Origin: a virus | Lineage: Duplodnaviria > Heunggongvirae > Uroviricota > Caudoviricetes | Length of the DNA stretch: 7,312 nucleotides | Virus record (IMG/VR): IMGVR_UViG_2740892270_000007 | Strand: one strand, 5' to 3' | Shown here: positions 6,701 to 7,312 of the stretch, in pieces | Layout of the letters: each line of letters begins with the position of its first letter | How positions within the stretch are numbered: position 1 is the first letter of the stretch | Program-made: the position numbers and the translations under genes | The notes under the pieces: model-generated | Databases searched by the model: none | Told to the model about the DNA's origin: nothing | Seen by the model: only the letters and a program-made list of their open reading frames with translations

Positions 6701-7207
6701 ATGAATAATGTATTTCTGTACCGGATGCCTGTTGGCATTGCCGGGGCTGTCTCTCGCCCGCAGGACTTAACCGTCGAACCGGTGGTCCTTAAATCCGATA
6801 ACGCCTTCGCTGCCTATGGCCTGGCTGGTAAATACGATGATGACGGTTTTTTCGTGCCGCTGGCAGATGGTGATACCGCAGACAAGGTGAAGGGGATCTA
6901 CGTGCGCCCTTATCCGACCACGTCGCAGCCGGACATGGTTCGCCAGGTGGGAACAGGCAAGAACTTCCCGGGCGACGCCATGAAGCGTGGCTACGTGACC
7001 GTTAATCTCGGTTCTGATTTTGATGCCAGCACTATCAAAAAAGGCGATCCGGTATACGTTGTCGTCTCCACTGATGAATCCATCAAAGTGCCGCTGGGTG
7101 GATTCATGTCCACGTCAGTCAGTGGCAAAAACGTGGTGCTGACCAACGCTGAATTCACAGGTGCCGGTGATGCTGACGGCAATGCAGAAATTTCCTGGAA
7201 GATTTAA
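6701..7207 (+). CDS. small phage head structural protein, possibly decoration/cement-like
   Basis: 168-aa ORF starting 4 nt after the previous stop, with AAGGG 7 nt upstream of the ATG. Composition rich in beta-strand-forming G/V/T/S/D. Function inferred only from position in the head module and composition. Confidence 0.45.
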   Translation: MNNVFLYRMPVGIAGAVSRPQDLTVEPVVLKSDNAFAAYGLAGKYDDDGFFVPLADGDTADKVKGIYVRPYPTTSQPDMVRQVGTGKNFPGDAMKRGYVTVNLGSDFDASTIKKGDPVYVVVSTDESIKVPLGGFMSTSVSGKNVVLTNAEFTGAGDADGNAEISWKI

Positions 7208-7218
7208 GGAACAGACGA

Positions 7219-7222
7219 ATGA
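7219..7222 (+). pseudogene. remnant start codon of the next late gene (probably major capsid), truncated by IS1
   Basis: AGGA (7207-7210) then ATG (7219-7221) at canonical spacing, followed one nucleotide later by the IS1 terminal repeat at 7223; ATG AGG TGA terminates at once. Confidence 0.35.
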
Positions 7223-7245
7223 GGTGATGCTGCCAACTTACTGAT
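7223..7245 (+). repeat. IS1 left terminal inverted repeat (IRL)
   Basis: GGTGATGCTGCCAACTTACTGAT is the canonical ~23-bp IS1 terminal repeat. Confidence 0.85.
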
Positions 7246-7277
7246 TTAGTGTATGATGGTGTTTTTGAGGTGCTCCA

Positions 7278-7312
7278 GTGGCTTCTGTTTCTATCAGCTG
7301 TCCCTCCTGTTC
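7278..7312 (+). CDS. insA: IS1 InsA (transposition regulator), 5' part only
   Basis: GTG start at 7278 followed by codons for ASVSISCPSCS, the recalled N-terminus of InsA (MASVSISCPSCSATDG...); truncated by window end. Confidence 0.8.
   Translation, partial: MASVSISCPSC

Follow-up and report, generated by a model that had tools for sequence, protein, structure and literature searches.

An IS1 element at the severed start of a major capsid gene is very probably a deletion scar in a defective Shigella sonnei prophage

Adjacent deletions by IS1 are classical in the gal region of E. coli. Missing target-site duplications at IS elements are usually attributed to adjacent deletion or to recombination between IS copies, and deletions of both kinds have been reviewed and quantified (PMC11708052). 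IS-mediated deletions are marked by one complete IS without a duplication, lying between flanks that are colinear with an intact reference, with the DNA between those flanks lost. IS-driven genome decay and pseudogenization have been described in Shigella (PMC8072062), and ipaH genes are surrounded by prophages and pseudogenes (PMC9046306). Repertoires of ipaH are mosaic and clade-specific (PMC8072062; PMC9046306).

The 7,312-nt stretch of DNA analyzed here (the window) carries most of a phage head module that is also present in Escherichia phage vB_EcoM-606R2, Salmonella phage SEN34, and Hafnia phage yong1, where it consists of DUF1073 portal, MuF, DUF2213, cement, and DUF2184 capsid genes. 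Over window positions 5471-7222, vB_EcoM-606R2 and SEN34 have the same gene order as the window and are 98.1% and 83.6% identical to it, respectively. All three phages run on into the major head gene, whereas the copy in the window ends one base after the ATG of that gene, where IS1 begins, and has a portal gene mutated by amber codons.

Several lines of evidence indicate that the IS1 at position 7223 is very probably the scar of an IS1-associated deletion in a defective S. sonnei prophage of the myovirus type. The locus shows no difference in kind from the IS-mediated deletions described previously (PMC11708052), and only its position in a prophage head operon beside pgl and the 19,075 bp involved are particular to it. 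It shares with the decay described in Shigella a high IS1 load and the breakdown of ipaH prophages through IS insertions, nonsense mutations, and deletions (PMC8072062, PMC9046306).

Head module, left junction, and IS1 element

The window was compared with several S. sonnei chromosomes, including that of strain 53G (HE616528.1; locus L005), and was 100% identical to them except for a masked run. This run of 293 N (window 4338-4630) lies in the portal gene and stands for 253 real nucleotides (L005 7678-7930). ORFs called across it are artifacts, and window coordinates to its right are 40 higher than those of the true DNA. Families of the head module were assigned by Pfam scans (Table 1). The last phage gene before the junction encodes a head cement protein, annotated in relatives as "structural cement protein Gp24." A gene for a 170-aa DedA/VTT-family membrane protein (window 508-1020, minus strand) is located between the lysis and terminase genes; it resembles a prophage "moron" and is conserved in the relatives.

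Table 1. Features of the prophage remnant, the IS1 junction, and the corresponding interval of an uninterrupted relative. Plain coordinates refer to the window; L005 is the S. sonnei 53G locus and L012 is the FDAARGOS_944 locus.
Feature	Coordinates	Strand	Family or remark
IS3-family element, IS2-sized, 1,331 bp	L005 1442-2772, just left of the window		In the 3' end of the holin gene
Large terminase	1930-3333		PF04466
Portal pseudogene	3333-4839	+	PF06381; contains the two ambers and the masked N-run
MuF-like	4730-5473		PF04233
DUF2213	5477-6697		PF09979
Head cement/minor capsid protein, intact, 168 aa	6701-7207	+	PF23982 (E 4.4e-30), PF22758 (E 2.8e-21)
AGGA, Shine-Dalgarno-like motif	7207-7210	+	8 nt 5' of the capsid ATG; intact relatives have it before their annotated capsid start as well
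Major capsid gene stump	7219-7227	+	ATG plus one base of codon 2
Left deletion/IS1 junction	7222-7223	.	Phage homology up to 7222, IS1 from 7223
IS1, first 90 bp	7223-7312	+	Left inverted repeat ~23 bp by alignment to the right end; element runs on to L005 11290
Complete IS1	L005 10523-11290		768 bp; imperfect terminal inverted repeats, aligned
19,075-bp interval	NZ_CP065613.1:4309986-4329060		
ipaHb, T3SS effector E3 ubiquitin ligase gene	L012 17361-19187	Opposite to the rest	Right end of the interval

Direct reading of window positions 6600-7312 located the TAA stop codon of the cement ORF at 7205-7207, an ATG at 7219-7221, a single A at 7222, and the left inverted repeat of IS1 from 7223. 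The IS1 bases begin GGTGATGCTGCCAACTTACTGAT... and run up to the end of the window as GGTGATGCTGCCAACTTACTGATTTAGTG.... Similarity to phages and prophages ended at exactly position 7222 in homology searches. What is left of the interrupted gene now reads ATG AGG TGA (Met-Arg-stop), with a stop codon built from IS1 bases.

The uninterrupted relatives used for comparison included the prophage of E. coli FDAARGOS_944 (99.9% identity) and phage vB_EcoM-606R2 (98.1%) as well as prophages of other E. coli. Their capsid gene starts at exactly the ATG at 7219 and encodes a protein of 313 aa (PF09950, which is DUF2184; E 6.8e-88 in the FDAARGOS_944 locus). Capsid homologs were 312-313 aa long at 100% coverage, and the SEN34 counterpart is annotated "major head protein." The original prediction had placed IS1 directly after a ribosome-binding site, an ATG, and one further base, and had guessed that the severed gene was that of the major capsid protein. 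All of its coordinates agree with the direct read, and its guess was right: the ATG opens the capsid gene in related phages, so the possibility raised at the time that it belongs to no gene there does not apply.

The element was likewise correctly named. From 7222/7223 to 7312, the window matches the IS1 annotated in phage P1 at 100% identity (E 5e-39), and beyond position 7312, where something other than IS1 might have followed, the 53G chromosome carries the complete element. This full copy is 99.7% identical to one annotated as an IS1A-family element. Translation of the L005 copy gave an insA product of 91 aa and insB' in the -1 frame, with the A6C slippery motif TTAAAAAACTC near the end of insA. 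The GTG start codon of insA is at window position 7278 (L005 10578) on the plus strand, in the direction of the head genes, as had been predicted. The called IS1 genes matched PF03811, PF12759, and PF03400 (InsA, HTH_Tnp_IS1, and DDE_Tnp_IS1), and fused 232-aa IS1 products were found among the annotations. Near-identity to reference copies, the length of 768 bp with inverted repeats, and the insA and insB' frames with their domains thus identify the element as IS1. Among E. coli genomes having any IS1, the median copy number was 10 places per genome.

Right flank and the 19,075-bp interval

The sequence past position 7312 was read from the identical S. sonnei chromosomes, which were found through the exact 168-aa cement protein. 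IS1 is followed in L005 by AACAGGGGGATTTACC, then by an ATG and a 43-codon remnant of a Pin/Hin-type serine invertase gene, and then by pgl, ybhD, and further chromosomal genes. The remnant encodes a 43-aa N-terminal resolvase/invertase fragment (PF00239) and is ~91-93% identical to pinE over 111 nt. The 9-bp flanks of IS1 are unrelated (GACGAATGA on the left and AACAGGGGG on the right), and there is no target-site duplication. It had been expected that GACGAATGA would be repeated as an 8-9 bp duplication at the other end of IS1 and that capsid sequence would resume there. Neither expectation was borne out, as the other end adjoins AACAGGGGG and leads into the invertase remnant and pgl instead; the lack of capsid sequence there had been named beforehand as an outcome that would refute the prediction. 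The element thus has neither the ~9-bp duplication nor the resumed target sequence of a simple insertion.

Insertions of the ordinary kind were used as positive controls. Two IS1 copies at other places in the FDAARGOS_943 prophage each lie in a contiguous target with a perfect 9-bp duplication, and the IS2-sized element of the S. sonnei holin gene has flanks that overlap by 5 bp. The method therefore detects simple insertions where they are present; the element in the holin gene is one, unlike the IS1 at 7223.

The two sides of the S. sonnei IS1 were then located in FDAARGOS_944. The left flank ends at L012 586, and the right flank takes up at L012 19662 with no change of strand, which puts 19,075 bp between them. 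The 407 bp that follow IS1 are 99.8% identical to FDAARGOS_944 and lie there on the strand of the head genes. According to its annotation, the interval holds genes for the capsid, connector/neck, sheath- and tube-like proteins, tape measure, baseplate, and tail fibers with a chaperone, and ipaHb. FDAARGOS_943 has the same layout of both flanks and interval. Flanks that are colinear and on the same strand, with extra DNA between them in an uninterrupted relative, are those of an IS-bounded deletion. The figure of 19,075 bp is an estimate of the deletion size in the S. sonnei ancestor, as the reference belongs to a different lineage (annotated as E. coli and carrying ipaH). Since the duplication is absent and the relative has 19,075 bp between the flanks, IS1 is best read as a deletion scar and not as a simple insertion. 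The original prediction of a simple IS1 insertion that truncates the operon thus holds for the gene, the element, and the junction, but not for the event.

The ancestral state would have been an intact prophage carrying ipaHb. In the present state, one complete 768-bp IS1 links base +4 of the capsid gene with a position 16 nt before the invertase remnant, which lies at the right end of the prophage beside pgl. The loss would amount to ~19 kb and would comprise the capsid, head-tail connector, sheath/tube, tape measure, baseplate, and tail-fiber genes as well as ipaHb. Two routes may be proposed. IS1 may have been present at one site, and its transposase may then have attacked the second site within that DNA molecule (intramolecular replicative transposition, or "adjacent deletion"). 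Alternatively, two IS1 copies may have been present in direct orientation at the two sites, with homologous recombination leaving one of them. Both routes would fit the locus, and both would leave one IS1 with unrelated 9-bp flanks.

Sequences that intermediates of these routes would contain were searched for. The capsid gene itself reads TTACTTTTGATCAGG... from codon 2 onward, and a hypothetical junction with capsid sequence on the far side of IS1 would read GACGAATGATTACTTTTGATCAGG after the right end of the element. Neither the IS1 right end joined to GACGAATGA and the capsid gene nor the flank upstream of the invertase joined to AACAGGGGG and the IS1 left end was found at any place covering at least 80% of the query in 5,426 E. 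coli genomes, a set with little Shigella. The same two intermediates, searched as gapped patterns, gave no match in metagenome contigs, which include few or no Shigella. An exact scan for the left and right junctions among species-representative genomes (one per species, evidently with no S. sonnei) also gave none.

A second IS1 copy was observed outside the window, at L005 13888-14655. It lies ~2.6 kb to the right of the first in inverted orientation, and the two copies bracket pin'-pgl-ybhD. This copy, too, sits on a deletion, in this case of 2,822 bp: ybhH is missing from nt 18 on, ybhI is missing entirely, and ybhJ lacks its first ~95 nt. Its flanks, AATACCCTG and CAAAAAAGG, show no duplication.

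Distribution of the junction and alternative readings

Both junctions were common to 12 of the 13 IS1-bearing loci that were fetched. In the public assemblies, the exact cement protein was found in 12,808 blocks and the DUF2213 protein in 4,653 blocks. The longest contig was 5-10 kb in 3,923 of the latter, which is the size of draft contig expected from the IS2-sized element to IS1 and indicates that short-read assemblies break at IS1. The exact capsid protein of the closest relative was found in only 946 blocks, so that the cement protein outnumbers it about 13-fold. In all 10 of the places listed, the capsid gene had the cement gene upstream and was never beside IS1, and no capsid was found in assemblies with the IS1 junction among the IS1-bearing assemblies sampled. 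These counts are consistent with loss of the 19-kb segment.

One locus (L022, CP179997.1; 7747 onward) keeps the left junction, but its right flank reads CATATGGATATGG... and leads into sbmA and a beta-lactamase-family gene, which indicates a later IS1-mediated rearrangement at the same copy.

An improbable reading that goes beyond the deletion itself is that it was selected in S. sonnei, removing ipaHb and the virion genes, and that read-through or outward transcription from IS1 now influences pgl expression. The deletion would in that case have put the invertase remnant and pgl directly downstream of IS1. In general, IS1 elements bring outward promoters and polarity effects on downstream genes, as the original prediction remarked of this copy. 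A consensus scan for promoters and terminators around IS1 and upstream of pgl gave 4, compared with 2.5 +/- 1.4 in shuffles, which is no excess and carries no weight for or against outward promoters or polarity.

The chance is smaller still that IS1 recombination, by inversion or translocation, moved the segment from capsid to ipaH elsewhere in the S. sonnei chromosome, beside another IS1. IS1 rearrangements do occur at this locus, as the sbmA-region flank of L022 illustrates. However, the usual right flank is the native downstream neighbor in its native orientation, which a single inversion cannot yield, and the rarity of the exact capsid, its absence from the IS1-bearing assemblies sampled, and the constant presence of the cement gene upstream of it in the places listed also argue, indirectly, against relocation. 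An inversion swap with the neighboring inverted IS1 was tried and rejected, as the reverse complements of its flanks AATACCCTG and CAAAAAAGG did not match GACGAATGA and AACAGGGGG by eye.

A simple insertion of IS1 in codon 2 of the capsid gene, with ~9 bp duplicated and the gene continuing on the far side, retains hardly any probability. The left junction is just what an insertion site would look like, and simple IS1 insertions occur elsewhere in the same prophage in other strains; the deletion may even have begun with such an insertion. As the present state of the locus, however, it is refuted by the right flank, where AACAGGGGG, the invertase remnant, and pgl stand in place of GACGAATGA and the capsid gene, and by the missing 19,075 bp. 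The right junction that it predicts also had no match in the 5,426 E. coli genomes or in the metagenome contigs.

An assembly artifact, in which both junctions would be mis-joins across a collapsed IS1 repeat, is just as implausible: IS1 is highly repeated and short-read assemblies break there (the excess of 5-10 kb contigs), but 12 loci share identical junctions and come from 11 genomes that were assembled independently, mostly as complete chromosomes, and the gene order past IS1 agrees with the chromosome of the relative.

Prophage decay and its meaning in Shigella

The deletion is accompanied by other lesions. Two amber codons that had been predicted in the portal gene proved real by comparison with an intact 488-aa portal: TAG at 3507-3509 (W59*) and TAG at 3708-3710 (Q126*). 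The portal gene differs from the intact copy of FDAARGOS_944 at three nucleotides, namely, those of the two TAG codons and a missense change, A308V (window 4255), and portal gene calls are split in the S. sonnei loci. The view of the prophage as crippled was thus well founded, with the capsid and tail genes gone, two ambers in the portal gene, and the holin gene carrying an IS2-sized element. Given these three lesions, the prophage cannot form virions. The window represents its surviving left part, from the lysis and DedA genes through those for terminase, portal, MuF, DUF2213, and cement protein. Apart from the portal gene, the head genes in this part (terminase, MuF, DUF2213, and cement) are intact and differ little from those of functional-looking relatives, which fits recent decay.

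The FDAARGOS_943 (L013) and FDAARGOS_944 (L012) genomes are labeled Escherichia coli, carry ipaHb, and have IS1 at many places (26 to 40 or more); the two strains look Shigella- or EIEC-like. Their prophage copies show independent decay: the baseplate region has taken up two IS1 and the terminase gene an IS2, there is a frameshift, and the MuF gene contains an internal stop.

All parts of the S. sonnei locus are of known kinds (IS1, an enterobacterial prophage of the myovirus type, and an IS-bounded deletion), and the sequences are in public annotated genomes. The event is one of ordinary IS-driven prophage and genome decay in Shigella. No description of this cement-IS1-pgl junction was found in the papers searched on IS and ipaH dynamics in Shigella.

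The locus illustrates that, where an IS end abuts a start codon, the other end should be examined before an insertion is assumed. Because the capsid gene is deleted and not merely interrupted, excision of IS1 could not restore the phage. S. sonnei lost an ipaHb-carrying segment here, and this loss accounts for one missing chromosomal ipaH copy at the locus.
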